Of a stretch of 64,000 bases of DNA, positions 20,094 through 30,516 are shown piece by piece. The position numbers and the translations under genes were made by a program. Origin of the DNA: Methanobacteriota archaeon (GTDB lineage: Archaea; Halobacteriota; Bog-38; Methanoflorentales; Methanoflorentaceae); contig OY970393.1 of NCBI GenBank assembly GCA_963720465.1, forward strand, positions 1,920,001 to 1,984,000. Reading direction: 5' to 3'. The notes beneath the pieces were generated by a model. It had not been told where the DNA came from. It made no database searches and saw only the letters and a list, made by a program, of their open reading frames with translations. Every line of letters begins with the position of its first letter. Position 1 is the stretch's first letter.

Positions 20094-21308
20094 GTGAATC
20101 TGTCATTGAAAGAGGTGCTCGCGATCAGAACTGGATTAAGATTTGTACATCTCAGCGACAGTCACTTAGGTTACAGGCAATATGGATTAAAACAACGTTT
20201 GCAAGATTGGAGTCATGCAACACAAGAAATTATCAACTACGCCGTCGAGAACAAAGTTGATTTTGTTCTGCATAGCGGCGACCTCTTCAACTCAAATTTG
20301 GTTGACCATACCACTCTCATTCATGCCATCAAAATACTGAATCCATTAAAAGAAGCCGAGATTCCATTTTTCGTAATAGATGGAAATCACGATAGGAGAA
20401 AAGGCTCTCAGAGCGACACAGCTAATGACGTACTCCAGCACTTGGAATTGTGCGACTATCTTGCCCCAGAAGGCGATAATCTCGATAATGCGATTAGACA
20501 AGTCGGCGAAACAAATATCATAGGACTTGGGTATCACGGCATCTATCTGCGGTCAAAAATTGAGAATTTTTTCAAACAAATGCCGGATGCACTTAATATC
20601 ATATTGTTGCACGCTGCTGTTGAGCATCATATTGCTGAAGGGCATCCAGATATTACATTGTCAGAGCTTGAAATGCTCAGACCAAGAGCTGCGTATTTGG
20701 CGCTCGGACACTCTCACAACAAGTTTAAGATAAGTGACTGGATTTTCAATCCAGGCAGCCCAGAATACTACAGATTTTCTGATCAAGACAACAAAAGGAT
20801 CTTTTATGATGTGGTGTTAGAAGACGGGAAAGCCGAGGTTTCGGAAATCGAAGTTCGTAGCGCTCGCCGCATGTTTGGTCTCAACGTCGAGCTATCTAGT
20901 ACCGATCAAGCGACCGAAAAGACCCTTGAATTGTTAGACAGGGAAAATGCGGACAATCAAATTGCCGACTCTCTTGTAAGAGTTGTGTTTGGAGGACAAG
21001 CCCCTACCGATCTGAGTTTGACCGAGTTAAAAGCAGCAATTGAGGTCCGCTACTCACCACTTTACTGTTTGGTAATAGACAATACTTCGCGTCAGGAAGA
21101 CGCATTTTCTGAAATTGAGGGTTCAATGGATGAATTCGAACTCAAAATGTTTCAACACACTTTTTCCGGTTATGATGAAGAAGCGCTAGAAGTTGCTACG
21201 TTTGCGAGAGGCATAATGAGAGAGATTATCGACATAAGCCCTGCAAGTGCCGAAGATGCCGAAATGATAGCGCAGCAAGTCTCTAGTTTCCGAAGAGATA
21301 ACATATGA
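20094..21308 (+). CDS. mre11: Mre11/SbcD DNA repair nuclease
   Basis: HLSDSHLG, GDLF, GNHD, LH, GHSH, NPGSPE phosphoesterase motifs; start codon uncertain. Confidence 0.92.
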   Translation: MNLSLKEVLAIRTGLRFVHLSDSHLGYRQYGLKQRLQDWSHATQEIINYAVENKVDFVLHSGDLFNSNLVDHTTLIHAIKILNPLKEAEIPFFVIDGNHDRRKGSQSDTANDVLQHLELCDYLAPEGDNLDNAIRQVGETNIIGLGYHGIYLRSKIENFFKQMPDALNIILLHAAVEHHIAEGHPDITLSELEMLRPRAAYLALGHSHNKFKISDWIFNPGSPEYYRFSDQDNKRIFYDVVLEDGKAEVSEIEVRSARRMFGLNVELSSTDQATEKTLELLDRENADNQIADSLVRVVFGGQAPTDLSLTELKAAIEVRYSPLYCLVIDNTSRQEDAFSEIEGSMDEFELKMFQHTFSGYDEEALEVATFARGIMREIIDISPASAEDAEMIAQQVSSFRRDNI

Positions 21309-24046
21309 AGATCGATAGCATTCGCCTTAAGAATATAAGGACATTCGTTGATTCTGGCGAGATATTGCTTGGCGACGGTACGGTATCTATCTATGGGGAA
21401 AACGGCGCGGGAAAGAGTACCATTGTAGATTGCATTGGGCGAGCGATTTTTGGCTACGACCCGCAAGGCATAAAACCCGCAGTAATTGACTACAGAGGGA
21501 CGAAACACAAGCAAGGCGTGGTAGAATATCTTCTTAGGAAAGGTGAGACTGACGGCTTAATTGAAGTCAAATTCTCCAACAAAGGAAAGGCGTTCCACGT
21601 TGTAAACAGACTATCCCGCACAGCGCCGCAAACCTGGGAGCTTTATATCGACGAAAGAAATCCCAAGCTGTTCGGAAAGGATGAGATCCACCAGCGAATC
21701 GTGGATGAGCTCGGTGTTTCGGCCGACTACAGTGAATCAGCCAGCAGTTTGTTTGCAAATATTATTTGTGTTCAACAAGGCAAAATCATAAACGAGTTTG
21801 AGTACAGCGCTCAAGCTCGGAAGGACCATTTTGATCGGGTGCTAGGGCTATACCGTTACAGGCAAGCCTACGATGATTCGAAGCACGTCAAGAACAATTT
21901 CAAAGAGAAAGCGACTAAGCAGGAGGGCGATGTTCGCGTAGTCAATTCGAGCGTTGAACACCTGAGCCAACAAATCAAAAGCTTGAAAGAACACGAAGAT
22001 GAAGCGAGTATCCTAGACCGCGAGCTCGAAGACATCGACAAACAAATAACTTCACTACGCGGACGCAAACAAGTTTTTGACGAGCTAAGTGAAAAAATCA
22101 GCAAACTTGAACTCGAGCTTAATGCCAATGAGACTCAAATAGGTGCTCTGAAAATCAACCTAAGTAATATCGAGAGAGAACTGAAAGACAGTCGCAGCGC
22201 AAAGCAGATAGTTGAAGCTAATCATCAATCTTTCCTACGATATGGCCAAATCTCAAATGAGCTTCAAGAGGTGCGAGGGTATCTTCGGCAAATTGCAACA
22301 CTTCAGGGAGATCTTTCCGTCAAACAAAGGGAATATGATCGTCTTGAAAATGAAAAGCAAAACAAAATAGTCGACCTAGATAATTTTCGAAACTCCCGGC
22401 AAAGAGCAACAGACCTCAAAAAGCACTCTGACGATTATCGTAGGCGTCAGACTGAACTGGAAGCATTAACGAGTAACCAACTGAGATATGAGACCCTTTT
22501 GAATAAGCTAAAAGACGACCAAGAAGCACTAAACGAAGATGAATCTGAGATCAAAGCAGCTGAGCTGCAACTTCAAAGCTACGAAGCTCTAAGAACCGAA
22601 GCTGATCTTCTGGAGGGTTTAAACAGGGAATATAATACAATAACTGCGCTTCTGGGAGAACGAAACGGTCAGAAGCTACAACTTGAGAAGGAATTGGCAG
22701 ATCTGTTAGAAGGGATCTGTCCTTACACCCATGAGACTTGCGAATCAATCCAAGAGCTCGGCCAAAAGCAAAAGCAAAAAGTAGAACAAATTCAGCGAGA
22801 TCTAGTCAAACTGGACTTCAAAAAGAGACAAAAATCGGAAGCAATTAAGCAAGCTGCTGAATCTGAAAAGACGCTCCGCATACTCGAAAAGAAGAAACAC
22901 GAGCTAGATCTTCTAAAGAACGAAGTGCACAACGTCAACACTGATATCAAGGGCCTGGTCGCCGAGATTAACCACTTAGGCGATTCTTCTGAAGCAATCA
23001 AAAACACAAAAGCGCGCCTTGATGAGTTAAAACCAGTAGCCGAGGAGTTTAACTCGCTATGGTATTACATTCAAAGGTTCGATGAAGATGTGACTCTACA
23101 AGAGATTACTAGCGTTGACGAAAAGCAATCTCGACTGGCGCAGGCTCTCGAAAGAATTGATGAAGAAACGGCGAAGCTTTCTGAAGCAGGCGGGAACGAA
23201 GAAAACGAAACGAGGCTAACTGAGGAACTGAAAGAAGTGAAATCTGCTTATGATCTTTACTTGGCGTCTCTAAACAACGCAGAGAAATTGGAAGAAGCAG
23301 AAATCAGTTATGATGATCTGCGCAGCAGACTTCAGTCTTTAGAGGGTCACCGAGAGGAATTAGATAACAGAGCACTCGAAACGAAAATTATCTACGATAA
23401 ACAGGAACATCAGAGAATCCTGGAAGAGCTAGATGAGAGACAGGGAATCTTCAAAGAAAAAAAAGGGGTCCTAACGCAATTACTCAAACAGATTGATCAA
23501 GAAAAGTCAATCGAAAGTGACGTTGAAGAGAAAAAAGGAGAGTTAATGGCCGCTGAAGTCGAACTTAAAGAAATCAAATCCGATGCTGCATTTTTTGACG
23601 AGATTCGGGCTAGTTTTAAGAAATTGAGTTCCCTGCGTCCAGTCTACACGAGAGAGATAAGTAAGCGCGCAGCACGTTACTGGTCAAGTCTCGTCGGTGA
23701 AGGATCTCAACTGTTTTGGCAAGAAGATTACCTAATCTACAAAACAATAAACGATAATGTAATCTCCCTGTACGAAATGAGTGGTGGAGAGAAAATTTCA
23801 GCGTGCCTCAGTATTCGCCTAGCGCTTCAAGAAGTTATCGGCGGACTCGGCCTTTTCATTCTTGACGAACCTACGATACATCTTGATGAGGAACGCCGTA
23901 ACAACTTGGCAAACCAAATAGGTGGAATTAAAGGATTAAGCCAAGTCATCGTTATAAGTCACGACAATGCTTTTCATTCGCACACAAGGCAACAAATCAC
24001 TATTCAAAGAGAATCTGAGGGCGGTGGCAGCTCTGTAGAATGGTGA
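21305..24046 (+). CDS. rad50: Rad50/SbcC SMC-family ATPase
   Basis: GENGAGKST, QQG, long coiled coil with central CPYTHETC, MSGGE, ILDEPT, SHD; ATGA overlap with mre11. Confidence 0.93.
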   Translation: MKIDSIRLKNIRTFVDSGEILLGDGTVSIYGENGAGKSTIVDCIGRAIFGYDPQGIKPAVIDYRGTKHKQGVVEYLLRKGETDGLIEVKFSNKGKAFHVVNRLSRTAPQTWELYIDERNPKLFGKDEIHQRIVDELGVSADYSESASSLFANIICVQQGKIINEFEYSAQARKDHFDRVLGLYRYRQAYDDSKHVKNNFKEKATKQEGDVRVVNSSVEHLSQQIKSLKEHEDEASILDRELEDIDKQITSLRGRKQVFDELSEKISKLELELNANETQIGALKINLSNIERELKDSRSAKQIVEANHQSFLRYGQISNELQEVRGYLRQIATLQGDLSVKQREYDRLENEKQNKIVDLDNFRNSRQRATDLKKHSDDYRRRQTELEALTSNQLRYETLLNKLKDDQEALNEDESEIKAAELQLQSYEALRTEADLLEGLNREYNTITALLGERNGQKLQLEKELADLLEGICPYTHETCESIQELGQKQKQKVEQIQRDLVKLDFKKRQKSEAIKQAAESEKTLRILEKKKHELDLLKNEVHNVNTDIKGLVAEINHLGDSSEAIKNTKARLDELKPVAEEFNSLWYYIQRFDEDVTLQEITSVDEKQSRLAQALERIDEETAKLSEAGGNEENETRLTEELKEVKSAYDLYLASLNNAEKLEEAEISYDDLRSRLQSLEGHREELDNRALETKIIYDKQEHQRILEELDERQGIFKEKKGVLTQLLKQIDQEKSIESDVEEKKGELMAAEVELKEIKSDAAFFDEIRASFKKLSSLRPVYTREISKRAARYWSSLVGEGSQLFWQEDYLIYKTINDNVISLYEMSGGEKISACLSIRLALQEVIGGLGLFILDEPTIHLDEERRNNLANQIGGIKGLSQVIVISHDNAFHSHTRQQITIQRESEGGGSSVEW

Positions 24047-25191
24047 AATTAGATCCCTTCTGGATGTACAGCGCAGTTGAGTCTCGAGTTGACGATCTCT
24101 CACGCATCTACTTTAAAAAGAAAGAAGAATGCGAGGCGCTGCGCTCTCAGTTTGAAAACGCATTGAAACTTGACCCACAGGTGATGTTTGAAAGTAACAA
24201 CGCCGAGTATCCGACTATACCCCTAGAAAATCGATGGATTAGCTCAATACGTCCAGATTTCAAATCAATTGAAGAAATGATGGCTTGGGCCCACGGCGTA
24301 CTAGAAGGCAAATTGGTTGCTGCCGTTGATGGTAGTCAGATACCGTATGACAGGGCAAATTCGATACCGACCGCGCTATGCCGCAGTTTTTTGTTTGCAA
24401 ATAAGCATGATGGCTCTTGCATTACCAAAGATTGTTGTAGATGCCTCTTGCCACAAGACAGCCTTGAAATGTCCAGAGATGAGACCATAATACTCCCCGA
24501 TCTGAGCTTTCGCAGATTCGCTTCTGAGATCGATATTGCTTTGAACAACCTGTCGCTGGAGATGGATGTGCTGTTGCTCGATGGGCCATTGATCATGTCT
24601 TTCTTGCACTTGTATAGAAAGAACGTATACAGATCAAGATACATTGGAAAGCTTCTAGCACTCCTGAAAAGCGCTGAAAAAAAGGTCGCGCTAATAGGCT
24701 ATCTCGACGTGTCACACGCTAAGGACTTGACAAAGACAGCTGGTTCCTTATTCGGACTGAATACGAGCAACTTAACTGACCCAGAACTACTCAACGATTA
24801 TCTTGGCGTATTTGATCGGACTTGCGCATTTCTTTCTCAAGATTCGATTCTTCAGCAATACAGAGGTAACGTGGACGGAAAACGCGTAGATTACTCCAAT
24901 CAGATGTGCTTTGCTTATTTGAGGGTTAACTCGCAAAGACCTGTAAGAATAGAATTCCCTCGTTGGGTCGTTGCGGAGGGAAAGCTAAACGATATCACAC
25001 GCTTGATTTGCGCAAGCTCCGCAATTGGAGCTGGTTATCCGTACGAGCTATCGAAGGCCCACGAGAACGTGGTACTGGGCTCCGAAGATCAAGCTAATTT
25101 CCAAAGAGTTGTAGAAGCGATAGCGAGTCAAAATGAATTCGAATTTGCCGCATCGCTCAAACATATTAGAAAGGAGAATCCGGTACAATGA
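24040..25191 (+). CDS. nurA: NurA 5'-3' nuclease
   Basis: AAVDGSQI, LLDGPL, RIEFP, GYPYELSKAHE. Confidence 0.9.
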   Translation: MVKLDPFWMYSAVESRVDDLSRIYFKKKEECEALRSQFENALKLDPQVMFESNNAEYPTIPLENRWISSIRPDFKSIEEMMAWAHGVLEGKLVAAVDGSQIPYDRANSIPTALCRSFLFANKHDGSCITKDCCRCLLPQDSLEMSRDETIILPDLSFRRFASEIDIALNNLSLEMDVLLLDGPLIMSFLHLYRKNVYRSRYIGKLLALLKSAEKKVALIGYLDVSHAKDLTKTAGSLFGLNTSNLTDPELLNDYLGVFDRTCAFLSQDSILQQYRGNVDGKRVDYSNQMCFAYLRVNSQRPVRIEFPRWVVAEGKLNDITRLICASSAIGAGYPYELSKAHENVVLGSEDQANFQRVVEAIASQNEFEFAASLKHIRKENPVQ

Positions 25192-25772
25192 CTCTAATTG
25201 GAGAAATAATGAGAGTTGATTCGGTTCTTGATTGGTTCGGCGAGGTGTATCATGAAAAGGCGGTTACCAACCCTCCAAAAAGAGACGATTATAGCTACGG
25301 AACGTTCGTAAGAGTTGAAGCTTTGGATGTCAAACTCGTGGCCATTATCAATAACGCACACATATATAACCCAGATTACGGGCTTCCGAACATTAAGCCG
25401 CTGTTACCACAGCAAAACAAAGTTATCTTTCCGGACTTTTTCAACGAAATCAAGAAACTGATTAGCTTATATTGCCTAGGTTACATAGATGGGGGGAGGT
25501 CGAGCCACGATTATCCGACAGTTGTCCCAGAATTGCATGACAAGATTTTCAAGATGTCACACAACGAGATTCGCGAATTCCATACACGGGATGGAAAATT
25601 GAGCTTGAGCTATTTGCCGCGCGTATCCAATTTTCATGATTATCCCTACATGCTAGACAAAATAACAACAGTACTGCGAAAAGTTTGTCCTGAGTCTTTA
25701 GAGCTTATTGACAAAGTGCAGAACGAATGCCAGTTTGGAACTTGCATTCAAGGGATGGGGCGAAGGCGATGA
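25188..25772 (+). CDS. uncharacterised protein, putative stand-alone HAS-barrel
   Basis: ATGA overlaps on both sides; IGEI...PP...YGTFVRVE...LVAII...LGY...PELHDKIF parallels the HAS barrel of HerA N-termini. Confidence 0.75.
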   Translation: MTLIGEIMRVDSVLDWFGEVYHEKAVTNPPKRDDYSYGTFVRVEALDVKLVAIINNAHIYNPDYGLPNIKPLLPQQNKVIFPDFFNEIKKLISLYCLGYIDGGRSSHDYPTVVPELHDKIFKMSHNEIREFHTRDGKLSLSYLPRVSNFHDYPYMLDKITTVLRKVCPESLELIDKVQNECQFGTCIQGMGRRR

Positions 25773-27301
25773 CATTCATAGGTAGGGCAAAAGGTCCTGG
25801 TCACCGCGCAGGAGAGTTTGCTTTTGTAGCGAACCGGCTGGATGATGCACAACTTGGGGAGTTTGTATGTTATGGAGCGGAAAGAACGCTGCTGGCTAGA
25901 ATTTTAGAGAGGGGGGATTACGAAACTTTTCCAAACAACTTTTTGAACAGCCCCAGTCATTCTCCGCACGAGATCGCAGAAGTTTTTGGCGCCGAATCGA
26001 CGAGCAATGTTGCATCGTACACCATCATAGCTAAAGTCCTTGGAGAATTCAATGCAGAAAATCGTACGTTTAAAGGCACTCGGAGACTCCCACAAGTCGG
26101 AGATCCCATCTATCTCGCAAATAGCACTCTTCTAAACGACGTGCTGCGGCCTGGGAAGGAAACAGGAATCATAGAAATAGGGACTCTTGCGACTCGAGAT
26201 GAAGGAGTGGGAGTTAGTCTCGATCTAAATGAAATAGCTTCTCGCCATTTGGCTGTTTTAGCCTCGACCGGAAGTGGCAAGTCTTACACGATTGGTGTAA
26301 TCTTAGAAGAACTGGTAGGTGCTCAAAATCGCGGATCTGCAGTTTTGTTCGACATACACGGTGAGTACAAGGACATGCCACTTACTGCGAGTTTTGAGGA
26401 TCATTTCACCGTAGTACGTCCGTTTATTAAGATACGGGACCTAACAGTTCAGGACTACAGCAATATATTCGGGCCTGATTTTTCAGGCAAGATGAAGGAG
26501 AGGTTATACCCAATCCTTAAAGAACTAAAAAAACAAGCTGAAAACTTCGATTTTAGTGACGTCTTAGGTAAATTAGGTAACGACACTAATGATGCTACTG
26601 ATGCCGCGATCAAGTGGCGATTACGATCGCTTAAACTGAAAAGCTTATTCTCTCGTGATCAGGATACACCGCTAACGCTGATCTGCAAACCAGGACACGT
26701 TTCGATAATTGATTTGACCGATCTGGACGAGGCAGAGGCTCGGATAGCCGTAGGATACTTAAGTTGGAAAGTTTTGCGTGCACGACAAAACTACAAAAAT
26801 GGCAAAGCATCCCTTGATACTCTTGAATTTCCTGTCATACTAGTGATTGAGGAAGCTCACCAGTTTGCACCATCAAAGGAAGACATTCCCTCAGGGCGTC
26901 AGCTAAAACATATAGCACGGGAAGGCCGGAAATTCGGCGTCGGTTTGATAATAGCAACGCAGAGGCCTAGCCGATTGGACGAAGACGTGCTATCTCAATG
27001 TAATTCCAGCATCATTATGAAGATAAACAACTCCAGCGATCAAGATTCTATTAGACGAGGAGTTGAATCAGTGAGCGACGATCTCATAAGCGACTTGCCT
27101 AGCTTGGAAGTGGGACAAGCAGTTATTTGTGGGGTTTGCACAAACACTCCTGCTCTTGTATCAATCAAATCAAGAAAAACTGCACATGCTGGCACGACTC
27201 CCGATTTTGCTGGCGAGTGCCGTAAGCGCTACGAGGATCACGCAAAAAAAGTCGAATACCATTCAAGGCCTTATCAACCAACAGAGCGAAATGAACTGTG
27301 A
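25769..27301 (+). CDS. herA: HerA helicase/translocase
   Basis: ATG at 25769 overlaps the previous stop; HLAVLASTGSGKSY, FDIHGEY, IEEAHQF, IAREGRKFG, TQRPS. Confidence 0.93.
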   Translation: MTFIGRAKGPGHRAGEFAFVANRLDDAQLGEFVCYGAERTLLARILERGDYETFPNNFLNSPSHSPHEIAEVFGAESTSNVASYTIIAKVLGEFNAENRTFKGTRRLPQVGDPIYLANSTLLNDVLRPGKETGIIEIGTLATRDEGVGVSLDLNEIASRHLAVLASTGSGKSYTIGVILEELVGAQNRGSAVLFDIHGEYKDMPLTASFEDHFTVVRPFIKIRDLTVQDYSNIFGPDFSGKMKERLYPILKELKKQAENFDFSDVLGKLGNDTNDATDAAIKWRLRSLKLKSLFSRDQDTPLTLICKPGHVSIIDLTDLDEAEARIAVGYLSWKVLRARQNYKNGKASLDTLEFPVILVIEEAHQFAPSKEDIPSGRQLKHIAREGRKFGVGLIIATQRPSRLDEDVLSQCNSSIIMKINNSSDQDSIRRGVESVSDDLISDLPSLEVGQAVICGVCTNTPALVSIKSRKTAHAGTTPDFAGECRKRYEDHAKKVEYHSRPYQPTERNEL

Positions 27302-27542
27302 CGGACTCTCTTGCGAACAAAGGCATTCTCTTTTAGAAACGGCATTCGGGCCCTCTCAACCATTCAGACGGAAAGTGCTGTAGACTAGGGTGGTTAAGCG
27401 CGAGCTGTCAAGTTAAGTTGGTGGTATGACCCTTAGTGCTTCTTTGAATTAAGACGTAAGCCGCGACGACTACTCAGTCATCTTGTTACTTTTAGGCCTG
27501 TAGGGCAAGACGATAACTCAAGTTGGGAGTGTCCCACTATCA

Positions 27543-27610
27543 GGTTCTGTTAAATCAAGAGTTGTTAAATCAAGAGTTGTTAAAAGTGGGTTGTTAACAA
27601 GAGTTGGTAA
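27543..27610 (+). repeat. left terminal inverted repeat with TGTTAA subterminal repeats
   Basis: TGTTAA at 14-15 bp spacing four times, including a perfect 15-bp tandem TGTTAAATCAAGAGT x2 (27548-27577). Confidence 0.85.
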
Positions 27611-27676
27611 AGCACACTTTGTTGCGTCGATTTAAAAACATTTAATAGCACTTGATTTCTCGTTACGCCATGGTTT

Positions 27677-28336
27677 ATGTCGGAACGTAACGAGGGGTTA
27701 CAGTACGCAACAATCGACAAAGCGTACGAGCAAACATCAATAAGAAAAAGAATCGAAGCGTTATTCCTTGACAATATCGGCAAAATTGTAACGCATGAGC
27801 AAATAGTGCAAGTTGCGAGAAATCCAAAGACGGGTGTAGACCCTGAAGATTGGCATCAACGTTTATCGGAATTAAGGACTGACGACGGTTATACTATCTT
27901 ATCGTACCGAGATACCCCAAACTTAAAAGTAAGCGAATATATGATGCCCTCGCGGGAAAGGCGGCCAAAAGCTGATAAACGGGTGCAACCTGAGAAAAAT
28001 ACGTGGCAACAAGTGCTTGAACGCGCAAATCATCAATGCGAGTGGGCAGAAGACGGGATGCCTTGTCGGCTAACAGAAGGGGATGTTGACCCGGTTAGCG
28101 GGGGACGTGTCAAACTTACGCCTGACCACAAAACCCCACACTCAACGAACCCGAACGCTGACCGAAATAACCCGCATGCGTGGCAGGCAATGTGTGGCAG
28201 GCATCAAGTAATGAAAAAGAATTATTGGGATAATGAAACTGGAAAACTGAACGTAATTGCCATTATTCAGTCTGCGTCCAAAAAAGACAAGCGAGCCGTA
28301 TATAATCTTCTAAAAGATTACTTCGGCGAGTCCTGA
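27677..28336 (+). CDS. HNH-family (restriction) endonuclease
   Basis: N-terminal wHTH-like WHQRLSELRTDDGY, then CEW...C...TPDHKTPH...WQAMCGRHQVMKKN; convergent with a methyltransferase. Confidence 0.75.
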   Translation: MSERNEGLQYATIDKAYEQTSIRKRIEALFLDNIGKIVTHEQIVQVARNPKTGVDPEDWHQRLSELRTDDGYTILSYRDTPNLKVSEYMMPSRERRPKADKRVQPEKNTWQQVLERANHQCEWAEDGMPCRLTEGDVDPVSGGRVKLTPDHKTPHSTNPNADRNNPHAWQAMCGRHQVMKKNYWDNETGKLNVIAIIQSASKKDKRAVYNLLKDYFGES

Positions 28337-28345
28337 ATGTTGTCA

Positions 28346-29125
28346 TCATGACTTCAAACGTTCAATTCCCAGGCGGTCTTCGACCATTTTGATGCGTTCC
28401 TCGTTCTGGTCACAAAGGATTGCACGCCTTCCTAGCTTTCTACATACTTCCCCCGTTGTGCCTGTGCCACACATTGGGTCTAAGACTAAATCCCCTTCTA
28501 TCGTAGTCATTTTAATGAGGGGTTCAATCACTTTAGCAGGCTTTTGAGCTGTTTTTGAGGGGTTCCCTATCTGTTCATTTCTTCCAACGAAGCCAATAAG
28601 GAGGGCTGATTCAATCACCGTAGGTGGCCCGGGAATATACCGTAACTTGTTGCTGTGATATTTCTCAAGTTGCACTTCATTCATGAAATGTTCAGGATAC
28701 AGCTTTGCAAAGAATTTGGCGATATGCAGACACGTTAATTGGGCAGAACGCCAACCACGTATTACCGTTGGGCAGTTCTTGTAGTACCACGTCAGCCATG
28801 CCACGAGTTCGGTTCCTTCAGGTAACGTATCGAGCACTTTGTAAACAATCTCAGGAAAACCCCATACAAGAATGTGGTCTGAGACTTTGCTCGTCTCAGC
28901 TATTACTGAATTGAGCCACGGAATATAATCCTCTCGCTGGCCGCCGACTCCTTTGTTGTACCACGGGTCAAGTAAGGTGGCAGTGACGTGCGTATTGATG
29001 CTTGAAAGTGTATCAAATACGTCCTGTGGGGGTAGTATGACTATATCACCCTCTTTAAGTGCCTCGCTTACTTCCTTTTGCACGGTTTGCTCTCCGTTCA
29101 ACAACAGAGATTCTTTCATATTCAC
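28346..29125 (-). CDS. site-specific DNA methyltransferase (N4-C/N6-A, beta order)
   Basis: DPWY catalytic motif precedes QKP and the VLDPMCGTGTT SAM-binding motif. Confidence 0.88.
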   Translation of the reverse strand: MNMKESLLLNGEQTVQKEVSEALKEGDIVILPPQDVFDTLSSINTHVTATLLDPWYNKGVGGQREDYIPWLNSVIAETSKVSDHILVWGFPEIVYKVLDTLPEGTELVAWLTWYYKNCPTVIRGWRSAQLTCLHIAKFFAKLYPEHFMNEVQLEKYHSNKLRYIPGPPTVIESALLIGFVGRNEQIGNPSKTAQKPAKVIEPLIKMTTIEGDLVLDPMCGTGTTGEVCRKLGRRAILCDQNEERIKMVEDRLGIERLKS

Positions 29126-29310
29126 TCTTGTGTTGTGCCAGAATGGACAGGACTGACAATAATTATCAGTTCTCCGTTTCTTACTTCAAGCTTCCAGCTT
29201 AGCGAATCTTCGCTTGTTAAGTCAAACTGTTTGACAATACTTCTCGGTACGGTTGTTCTCAGCGACTCCTTTTTCGACGTTGCTGGAGTAAGTTTTGTTA
29301 ATTCGCTCAT
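29122..29310 (-). CDS. AbrB/MazE/SpoVT-type DNA-binding protein
   Basis: SLRTTVPRSIVKQFDLTSEDSLSW; stop overlaps the methyltransferase start (GTGA). Confidence 0.8.
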   Translation of the reverse strand: MSELTKLTPATSKKESLRTTVPRSIVKQFDLTSEDSLSWKLEVRNGELIIIVSPVHSGTTQE

Positions 29311-29312
29311 AG

Positions 29313-29402
29313 TTTACCTCTTAATAGGCATATACCTCCTTCTGTATAAATTTACCTATTAATAGTCCTTCAGTGTTACCTAAGAATATATGAATAGGTA
29401 AA
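29313..29402. promoter_or_regulatory. putative operator repeats in a divergent promoter
   Basis: TTTACCTCTTAATAGG (29313), TTTACCTATTAATAG (29351), TTACCTA (29376), inverted AATAGGTAAA (29393). Confidence 0.55.
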
Positions 29403-29407
29403 GTATT

Positions 29408-29693
29408 ATGATAGCAAGAACCCAAACTTTGGGGCCGAGAATCTTTAAAGGCTATGAATTTGTTGCTACTTAGCATCGCATAACGCTCACTCTTTTTTAA
29501 CGCCTCTCAGTCCAGCGATACGCAGTACGAAGTCCACATTTCAGAGTAGGAAAGTAGCTACACCCGTCCCGACCACGTGCCGAAAACGCAGTGCAAGCAC
29601 ATTGTAGCTGTAAGATTATGGCTTGCGCTTAAAGACAAGTTAGTGGCTCGCGCGCAACGAGCACTTTTAAAATTTCTAAATTTAGATATCTAA
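29408..29693 (+). pseudogene. decayed N-terminal SWIM zinc-finger region of an archaeal IS6-like transposase
   Basis: MIARTQTLGPRIFKGYEFVAT*HRI..., frameshift, SQSSDTQYEVHISE*ESSYTRPDHVPKTQCKHIVAVRLWLALKDKL matches SQS..Y.V...CxCPD...CKHIxAV with the first two Cys lost. Confidence 0.65.
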
Positions 29694-29764
29694 AGCTTTA
29701 AGATATTTTTTTGTTCTTATTCTAATCAGTATTGTGAAGGTTTATGAAGTGTATTCCGCACACC

Positions 29765-29813
29765 ACCCCCTTATTAACAACCCAAAATTAACAACCCTCA
29801 TTTTAACAGCTCC
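29765..29813 (-). repeat. right terminal inverted repeat
   Basis: TTAACAACCC twice, then TTTTAACAGCTCC, mirroring the left end. Confidence 0.8.
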
Positions 29814-29880
29814 GAATAAAGAGGGGGTATGAATAAAATGCTATCGAGTACCCCCACAGCTTCATCAAGAAATAGCAAAA

Positions 29881-30516
29881 CTAGGTGATCGCGCACGTGC
29901 ACTCGAGCACGTCTTCAAACCGATCGTTCACCATTTCCCAGTTCACGATGTTCCAGAACGCGTCGACGAATTTCGGCCGCTCGTTCTTGTAGTCGAGATA
30001 GTAGGCGTGCTCCCAGACGTCAAGAACCATAACGATGCGGAAGTTTGGATAGACGTTGACATTGTGCTTCTCTATTTGCATTATTATGGGCCTGTTTGTC
30101 AGCTTGTCGAGCGCCAGCGCTGCCCATCCTGACCCTTCGGTGGTTGCCGCAGCTTTGCTAAACTCCGCCTTGAATCGATCAAAGCTGCCGAACTCGTCGT
30201 TTATGGCATCGGCCAACTTGCCTTTAGGGCCCCCGCCGCCTCCTTTGCCGGCAGGCGCCATCGTGGGCCAAAAAAGTTTGTGGAGTATGTGGCCGCCGAT
30301 GTTGAACGACAACTCCTTTAGCGTAGCCTTAGCGTCTAGGTCTGCGTTGCTCTTGCGTGCAGCATCGAGCTTCTCAAAGGCCGCGTTAGCACCGTTTACG
30401 TACGCGAGATGGTGTTTGTCGTGGTGAATCCTGAGCTGTTGCTCAGAGATATAGGGCTCTAAGTCGTTATAGCCATAGGGCAGATCTGGCAAGACATAAA
30501 ACTTGTTCGCTTCCAT
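29881..30516 (-). CDS. sod: Fe/Mn superoxide dismutase
   Basis: [32 protein letters not shown]; likely start MEANKFY at 30516. Confidence 0.95.

Follow-up and report, generated by a model that had tools for sequence, protein, structure and literature searches.

The segment at positions 27543-29813 of a 64,000-nucleotide stretch of archaeal DNA (contig OY970393.1, positions 1,920,001 to 1,984,000; this whole stretch is referred to as the window) is very probably a decayed, non-autonomous member of an archaeal unit-transposon family built on an IS6-type transposase. The element spans about 2.3 kb, is bounded by inverted multi-site ends, and carries a convergent pair of type II restriction–modification (R-M) genes in what corresponds to the left cargo slot of its intact relatives. 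The host carries a full-length archaeal small-subunit rRNA (1583 bits), and it was compared with the species genomes of its class, 24 in number (23 relatives and its own), as well as with metagenomes; individual loci of both are designated below by L numbers. A sequence-only reading of the same DNA had proposed a transposase-less, IS6-like cargo element delivering an R-M system, and this interpretation is supported as largely right.

Inverted Multi-Site Ends of the Element

Both ends of the element open with the pattern GGxxCTGTTAAA, followed by GTTGTTAA sites that are spaced 14-15 bp apart in the left end (Table 1). A repeat search recovers the two ends as a 43-nt inverted pair that is 79% complementary. 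The left end holds one site more than most of its relatives, through a 15-bp tandem duplication, and the third base of the right end, A, is unique among the ends seen. That inverted ends enclose the gene set, as the sequence-only reading had described, is confirmed: a nuclease gene, a methyltransferase gene, an AbrB gene and a transposase relic all lie between them, and the part of that description which no tool confirmed is the HNH label given to the nuclease.

Taken alone, the 12-mer terminus is weak evidence and not beyond chance, with two matches in the window against 0.63 expected and two matches reached in 15 of 100 shuffles. The GTTGTTAA site has six matches against 1.21 expected, a number reached in one of 100 shuffles, and five of the six fall within the two ends. 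Across the whole genome of 2,313,764 bp, 68 copies of GTTGTTAA form just three clusters, namely the two ends in the window and one solo end. Moreover, an nhmmer profile built from 12 ends finds every one of these again with E 4.7e-05 or better; in the rest of the 2.31-Mb genome, no match is better than E 5.5. The solo end (C1:1298440-1298493, equivalent to L007:10441-10494) belongs to the same family, has three GTTGTTAA sites and adjoins a gene for a 155-amino-acid (aa) coiled-coil/transmembrane protein. A shorter gene, similar to this one as judged by eye, sits just outside the transposon at L034 that is described below.

Table 1. Coordinates of the features discussed, in window positions unless a locus is named.
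Feature	Coordinates	Strand	Basis or composition
Left end	27543-27611	+	terminal GGTTCTGTTAAA 27543-27554; GTTGTTAA at 27561, 27576, 27590; GTTGGTAA at 27604
Type II restriction endonuclease, 219 aa, full length	27677-28336	+	PADLOC REase_II PDLC03503
N6/N4-class DNA methyltransferase, 259 aa	28346-29125	-	Pfam PF01555 N6_N4_Mtase E 9.6e-20; PADLOC MTase_II E 1.2e-21
AbrB/MazE-fold protein, 62 aa	29122-29310	-	PF04014 18.4 bits (cut-off 24.7); homologue in L064
Divergent intergenic region, AbrB gene to transposase start	29311-29407	.	conserved with intact elements
Transposase relic, residues 1-85 (weakly to ~105) of a 372-aa SWIM/IS6-type transposase	29408-29696	+	tblastn
Right end	29760-29813	-	terminal GGAGCTGTTAAA 29813-29802; GTTGTTAA 29795-29788 and 29781-29774; degenerate third site
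Sister transposon, SWIM + IS5-type DDE transposase	L017:13496-17035		GGCTTTGT... termini, 9-bp duplication
Sister transposon, SWIM + IS5-type DDE transposase	L019:2954-8079		GGCTTTGT... termini, 9-bp duplication
Sister transposon, SWIM + IS5-type DDE transposase	L019:8089-13550		GGCTTTGT... termini, 9-bp duplication
Sister transposon, SWIM + IS5-type DDE transposase	L034:112-6503		GGCTTTGT... termini, 9-bp duplication

The End Family and Its Target Duplications

The end pattern occurs in six of the 24 class genomes (five of the 23 relatives and the host's own), and a reversed control pattern has no matches. Nine ends were found in related genomes, all of them without a second, partner end over a distance of 17 kb. 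The metagenome scan yielded 64 distinct loci with 59 family-type ends, together with 11 unrelated matches. All 59 ends begin with GGT(T/G)CTG; the corresponding bases in the window are GGTTCTG and GGAGCTG. On five metagenome contigs, convergent pairs of ends lie 2.65-4.8 kb apart, and in four of these pairs perfect 8-bp target duplications directly abut the terminal GG (L042 CTCGATCC, L061 ATCGTTGG, L063 AACAGAAA and L064 AAATCGAG). The family ends are true transposition termini that make 8-bp duplications. Duplications of this length are a hallmark of the IS6 family according to the IS6 review (PMC7986276, cited here and below from the parts of its text that were available), and the proposal of an IS6-like unit-transposon family holds in this respect.

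Thirty-two of the metagenome ends have at least 3.5 kb of inward sequence, and within 3.5 kb a transposase is present at 16 of them, with an IS6-type catalytic region at nine and an IS5-type one at seven; 20 have a transposase or an AbrB gene. The end motif consequently flanks transposases elsewhere, as the sequence-only reading had anticipated. One paired element, L063, combines both ends and its perfect duplication with two AbrB genes and no transposase. A further sequence, CGTTAAYA.TATAAA..., is conserved 8 bp outside many ends (L023, L026, L042, L046, L057, L060, L061, L073, L074 and others), with the intervening 8 bp varying; possible interpretations are a favoured target sequence and the terminus of another element.

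Alternatively, the repeats might be unconnected with mobility, either serving a fixed R-M locus as arrays of operators or being inverted repeats that arose by chance. Such a view would find some comfort in the 12-mer, which is not significant in the window when taken alone, and in the general capacity of AbrB-fold proteins to bind DNA as regulators. It is nevertheless already contradicted by the target duplications at four of five end pairs elsewhere, by ends that flank transposases and unrelated cargo, and by the reversed control pattern that matches nothing in 24 genomes, and it is hardly credible.

Intact Members of the Family

Intact members are 4.2-4.8 kb long and have 8-bp target duplications on both sides. 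Their ends, of about 55 bp, consist of GG(T/A)(T/G)CTGTYAAA, two or three GTTGTTAA sites at 14-15-bp spacing, and then GGTTGG. The end pairs of L042, L061 and L064 each enclose a transposase of 371-372 aa, which comprises a SWIM finger (residues ~43-72), a four-cysteine zinc domain (95-124) and a DDE_Tnp_IS240 core (PF13610, E ~3e-20). NCBIfam runs of the L042 and L064 proteins, from which the zinc domain is also taken, gave 133.6 and 132.7 bits, respectively, on the IS6 model NF033587 (cut-off 125), in agreement with the SWIM-DDE transposase that had been predicted for the family. At E <= 1e-10, the SWIM-IS6 transposase family comprises 884 protein clusters, one member of which is labelled 'IS6 family transposase' by NCBI. 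Its relatives include proteins with 52-56% identity in Thermoplasmatota metagenome-assembled genomes (MAGs) and one with 37% identity in a Nitrosopumilaceae MAG.

Just upstream of the transposase gene, and divergently transcribed from it, the intact members have a gene for an AbrB-fold protein of 58-67 aa (58-60 aa in L042, L061 and L064). This arrangement recurs in the cargo-bearing copies and agrees with the suggestion that the family possesses a putative regulator of its own. Cargo occupies two slots, the first reaching from the left end to the AbrB gene and the second from the transposase gene to the right end, and the paired elements carry 1-3 kb of it, with the AbrB gene and two to five further open reading frames (ORFs). 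In L042, the cargo includes a different methyltransferase and a weak EcoRII-C-like protein; ParE/YafQ-like and SocA/Panacea-like proteins occur in L042 and L061, all under Pfam cut-offs, and L064 carries a DUF4143/AAA_14 pair. Another cargo protein, of 270-282 aa, resembles a proteasome subunit, with a Pfam match in one copy (L020). Internal defence cargo, likewise foreseen, is represented by other R-M genes in L042 and L018. The latter locus (L018:3020-5314, G009:C9) has an end with R-M-like cargo made of a 281-aa N6_N4 methyltransferase and a 208-aa ORF of no known family, along with a frame-shifted AbrB remnant; its layout parallels that of the window and its genes are unrelated.

The Transposase Relic

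The relic in the window is scattered over three reading frames. With the L042 and L064 proteins as queries, tblastn finds residues 1-21 at 29408-29470 (57-67% identity) in the first frame, residues 24-35 at 29470-29505 in the second, and residues 32-85 at 29493-29651 (72% identity) in the third, so that the relic contains two frame changes in addition to in-frame stops. A weaker match from the whole-genome search reaches residue 105 (E 3.2e-17) and contains one TAG and one TAA. Both cysteines of the SWIM CxC motif (CTC) are lost, the triplet of residues now being Y-T-R.

DNA homology to intact elements stops at 29650, about 110 unmatched bases follow, and then comes the right end; therefore, the zinc ribbon and the DDE core have been deleted, along with any cargo on the 3' side. 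The internal deletion starts around codon 85-105 of the transposase gene and extends to roughly 110 bp before the right end. With both ends present and the functional transposase gone, the window copy is a non-autonomous transposon derivative.

The AbrB-Fold Gene

The divergent region is conserved between the window and the intact elements, with positions 29147-29650 showing 72-73% DNA identity to L042, L064 and L033 (blastn). The L064 homologue of the AbrB-fold protein is 74.5% identical to the window protein and reaches 26.7 bits on PF04014, above the cut-off of 24.7. By tblastn, AbrB is found 0.8-2.9 kb inside 16 of the 32 metagenome ends with sufficient inward sequence, and the gene is also present in copies that have no R-M genes (L061, L064 and L017). 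The AbrB-fold gene is a core gene of the transposon family.

In the window, the AbrB stop codon and the listed methyltransferase start overlap by 4 nt, as they also do in the L034 copy; because of this overlap, the two genes are probably co-transcribed. AbrB-fold proteins are DNA-binding regulators, and from its position at the divergent promoter this one probably regulates the transposase. In the window copy, the AbrB promoter would probably also drive the overlapping methyltransferase gene.

The Restriction–Modification Cargo

The restriction endonuclease (REase) and methyltransferase genes are convergent, with 9 bp separating their stop codons, and both ORFs have the lengths of their homologues. 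As judged by gene content, these adjacent intact genes would constitute a type II R-M system. The REase matches the REBASE-derived PADLOC model PDLC03503 at E 2.6e-91 over profile positions 8-215 of 218, and it has 1414 homologues, mostly bacterial and about 60-67% identical, some of which NCBI names 'restriction endonuclease'. Residues C121, C130, D150, H151, C173, H176, Q177 and N182 are invariant. The protein has a Cys/His-rich C-terminal half and, in an AlphaFold model (mean predicted local distance difference test score, pLDDT, 80.7), an N-terminal winged helix (residues ~12-98; window 27690-27960).

In the VIA-align wide search, the REase model matched known structures through the N-terminal winged helix only, and the best structural match of this domain is the REase NaeI (Z 8.0, root-mean-square deviation 2.2 over 74 residues). 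Foldseek gave no match to the model at E <= 0.001, the catalytic half has no Pfam match up to E 10 and no NCBIfam match, and phmmer and profile searches of the PDB returned nothing meaningful. Thus, neither the HNH label of the nuclease nor a link to KpnI was confirmed by any of the tools applied (Pfam, NCBIfam, PDB and fold searches). The invariant Cys/Asp-His/His-Gln/Asn pattern is compatible with a zinc-bound HNH site, and D150-H151...Q177 here has the spacing of D148-H149...Q175 in R.KpnI; the enzyme is possibly a KpnI-like HNH nuclease.

A scan of the genome for depleted 6-bp palindromes gave no signal of a recognition site, the lowest observed/expected ratio being 0.80, and GGTACC shows no avoidance (0.94). 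The two proteins have diverged unevenly from their counterparts in one and the same R-M pair (window 27677-29125 against L034:3250-4687), with 94.6% aa identity for the methyltransferase and 77% for the REase.

Sister Transposons with an IS5-Type Transposase

Several observations weigh against the segment being a decayed IS6-type unit transposon. At the level of the family, the metagenome loci are not independent, since they include near-duplicates such as L058/L069 and L048/L083, and the counts given above are therefore not independent either. One of the five metagenome end pairs, L032, has no target duplication, and 12 of the 32 ends lack both a transposase and AbrB in their first 3.5 kb. 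The AbrB-fold protein of the window scores below the PF04014 cut-off (Table 1), and tblastn at E <= 1e-3, a weak search with a very short query, found no AbrB beside the distant SWIM-IS6 transposases L094-L112. At the level of the element itself, the points concern its cargo, its ends and its insertion site.

The closest relative of the cargo lies in an IS5-type backbone. Positions 27749-29406 of the window are 85% identical to L034:4621-2968 over 1662 bp of DNA, a stretch that covers most of the REase gene, the methyltransferase and AbrB genes and the intergenic region as far as the beginning of the transposase gene. The L034 module sits in an element of 6.4 kb that has GGCTTTGTTGCA... termini, is flanked by a perfect duplication of 9 bp (TTGATTTGG) and encodes a transposase of its own, which is a SWIM + DDE_Tnp_1 protein 92% identical to that of L017. 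In one respect this module also speaks for the main reading, since it shows the cargo being carried elsewhere by an intact transposon. The L017 protein reaches 148.3 bits on the NCBIfam IS5 model NF033579 (cut-off 140). IS5-type and IS6-type transposases have only the N-terminal ~70 residues in common (49% identity, E 4e-16). The ends of the family described here are also found beside IS5-type SWIM transposases, both at the seven metagenome ends mentioned and, within the genus, in L017, L019, L022 and L023 (fragments of IS5 type in the last two), and in L017, L019 and L034 a GGCTTTGT-type end is followed, about 10 bp further in, by a GTTGTTAA-type end. An end of a given type does not always go with the same type of transposase. 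That an IS5-type SWIM transposase would occur beside the same ends was unforeseen by the sequence-only reading.

It is conceivable, therefore, that the segment is the remnant of an IS5-type composite like L034, in which the GTTGTTAA arrays were internal and the outer GGCTTTGT... ends have been lost. The kinship of the cargo with L034, the GTTGTTAA-type ends directly inside such termini and the IS5-type fragments of L022 and L023 all speak for it. Yet the relic is 72% identical to the IS6-type protein over residues 32-85, as opposed to 49% to the IS5-type protein, the homology with L034 extends precisely as far as the start of the transposase, 29406, and paired GTTGTTAA-type ends carry 8-bp duplications by themselves in four of five cases. 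Furthermore, a scan of the host's own genome found four GGCTTTGT-type termini only, all of them outside the window coordinates. Such an origin is accordingly improbable.

The sister transposons have their own subterminal repeat words, and GGCTTTGT-like termini and a 9-bp duplication are features of the IS903 group. One of them (L019:8089-13550) has genes for an EVE-domain protein and for a type IIG-like R-M enzyme of 826 aa. In the host's genome, an 86-bp element at C1:2040230-2040315 consists solely of two GGCTTTGTAAAA-type ends with TGTTAAAAAAGT repeats and is flanked by a 9-bp direct repeat, CCAATTTGA; it is a miniature inverted-repeat transposable element of the IS5-type sister family.

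Because the L034 homology does not continue into the transposase, the AbrB/SWIM region appears to be where transposon backbones were joined by recombination. Eleven of 42 distinct ends are located 7-10 bp outside a GGCTTTGT-type terminus, and L019 contains two tandem IS5-type elements that have one 9-bp repeat, TAACTCTTA, in common at each of their three flanks; such patterns suggest that the elements may insert beside each other's termini. A broader picture can tentatively be drawn, although the odds are rather against it in its full form: a portable end-recognition module, made of the SWIM N-terminus, a divergent AbrB-fold partner and subterminal repeat arrays, may have been joined to unrelated IS6-type and IS5-type DDE cores. 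Its members would insert beside or inside each other's termini, swap cargo (R-M, toxin–antitoxin-like and other genes) by recombination at the AbrB/SWIM region, and build arrays of defence genes.

Genomic Context and Immobility

The insertion site supplies the remaining points. The window copy, whose left flank is CACTATCA and whose right flank is GAATAAAG, has no target duplication; its 8- and 9-bp flanks match neither each other nor the flank of the solo end. None of the 23 relatives has DNA matching the left flank (25700-27542), so there is no empty site to compare, and in four sequencing runs aligned to the stretch no contig skips the element or contains a joint across it. Four runs contain the stretch in full and may be the source of this DNA, five others share 5-6% of its words, and none of the runs listed is RNA. 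Because no empty site was found, the insertion of the window copy as one unit is something that we infer.

On the right side, relatives align from 29861-29883 onwards, at the 3' end of a superoxide dismutase gene and 48-70 bp past the right end, and their contigs in the sequencing runs break at 29882-29887. On the left side, the genes for NurA, a 194-aa ORF and HerA (24040-27301) have no DNA match in the 23 relatives, which have only a diverged SbcC-like gene (64-68% identity) and then the dismutase directly. These breaks qualify the expectation that synteny would end at the element's termini: on the right the break falls outside the end, and on the left the flank is missing from the relatives altogether. 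The element stands at the edge of a variable region of about 10 kb with lower GC content (0.40-0.47, against 0.50-0.57 to its right). No tRNA was found in the window by ARAGORN. Adjoining the left end is a tightly overlapping operon (21305-27301) encoding an SbcC/Rad50-like ATPase (913 aa), NurA, the 194-aa ORF and HerA, with weak PADLOC matches to mad3, mad8 and LmuB; these genes may form an island for defence or repair that is peculiar to the strain.

These flanks lend weight to the possibility that the two ends come from different copies, and that the segment is a recombination product, or an IS6-style intramolecular or cointegrate product, that never inserted as a unit. The lack of a target duplication is consistent with such an origin, as are the contrast between strain-specific DNA on the left (SbcC-like/NurA/HerA) and core DNA on the right, and the different number of sites in the left and right ends. 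In addition, IS6-family elements move via cointegrates, and copies can be without duplications, according to the available text of PMC7986276. However, the order of left end, cargo, AbrB gene, transposase and right end, together with the orientations, is that of the intact single elements L042 and L064, and the genome contains only one further end, whose flank pairs with neither flank of the window copy. A two-copy origin is thus the less likely account, but it keeps an appreciable share of the probability.

The window copy looks immobile, because it has no target duplication and neither type of transposase has a further homologue in the genome. In the single-contig genome, 91% complete by markers, the IS6-type transposase has no match besides the relic, and an IS5-type query matches nothing. 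The sequence-only reading had described the copy as immobilised, and the findings agree. It had also raised mobilisation in trans, for which the transposase-less L063 with its perfect 8-bp duplication offers a precedent. For the present host, this is very improbable: apart from the relic there is no homologue to act in trans, the right end carries a base change seen in no other end as well as a third site that is degenerate, and none of the four sequencing runs has a contig that skips the element.

Proposed History of the Element

The preferred reading, a decayed IS6-type unit transposon, can be cast as a sequence of events. The element would have arrived by transposition, and its target duplication would have been lost through later rearrangement, unless it was never a simple insertion. 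The single copies with duplications seen elsewhere fit either the cointegrate or the simple-insertion route. Internal deletion and point decay would then have removed the transposase, leaving a fixed R-M locus. The immobile copy may persist through its intact R-M genes, being either useful or addictive, and selfish (post-segregational) retention is plausible.

Each end provides three to four putative binding sites, and the terminal CTGTTAAA resembles a degenerate version of GTTGTTAA. These sites are probably bound by the N-terminus of the transposase, possibly together with the AbrB-fold protein.

Relation to Known Systems

The transposons described here share with the IS6/IS26 family (IS26, IS257 and archaeal members) the DDE_Tnp_IS240 core, a passing score on the NCBIfam IS6 model, termini that begin with GG and have G at position 7, and the 8-bp target duplication (PMC7986276, PMC6807381). 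In the available text of Harmer and Hall (PMC6807381), GG and G7 are the near-universal bases of the terminal inverted repeats, and the IS6 review, in its available parts, gives 8-bp repeats, an average length of ~800 bp and short inverted repeats (PMC7986276). In contrast to that family, the transposase here has 372 aa, with SWIM and four-cysteine zinc-ribbon extensions; the ends are about 55 bp long with three to four repeated sites, as against inverted repeats of 14-20 bp in IS6; and the elements, which include an AbrB gene and 1-3 kb of cargo, measure 2.65-4.8 kb as against ~0.8 kb. The elements are not the simple, single-gene, cargo-free units of ~700-900 bp by which IS6 is otherwise recognised. 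By its catalytic core, termini and duplications, the family belongs with IS6, and by its size and gene content it is a variant rather than a typical member. Within the IS6-type unit-transposon family itself, the window copy is an ordinary, dead member.

Partial parallels exist. In the available text of the IS6 review, ISDsp3 is the single member with a passenger gene, zinc-finger extensions with CxxC motifs are confined to the clostridial clades h/i, and IS6 otherwise carries genes as pseudo-compound transposons (PMC7986276). ISDsp3, compared here by its description, resembles the present family in having a passenger, and clades h/i resemble it in their N-terminal zinc-finger extension; unlike both, the present elements have a SWIM finger (CxCxnCxH), archaeal hosts, several passengers and complex ends. 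The word SWIM is absent from the available text of PMC7986276 and PMC6807381, as is 'subterminal' from that of PMC7986276, and no description of a SWIM-bearing IS6 element was found in the full-text literature, a search outside of which ISfinder lies.

The IS5-type sisters (L017, L019 and L034) are alike in their SWIM N-terminus, AbrB partner, repeated subterminal sites and R-M cargo, and differ in their unrelated DDE_Tnp_1 core, GGCTTTGT... termini and repeat words; their duplications are of 9 bp. Tn7 and Mu have several transposase-binding repeats per end and distinguishable left and right ends. The multi-site ends described here resemble theirs by analogy only, with no homology, in a much smaller element in which no accessory ATPase or target selector was seen.

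Significance

If this reading is true, a widespread archaeal lineage of IS6-type unit transposons, with multi-site ends, a SWIM/zinc-ribbon transposase, an AbrB gene and defence cargo, would widen the picture of IS6 as a uniform family of ~800-bp elements. They would provide a concrete route by which R-M systems spread among uncultured archaea, as well as a natural experiment on how transposase families exchange domains. In the genome studied here, the element would explain the presence of a strain-specific R-M system at a variable, defence-rich locus.

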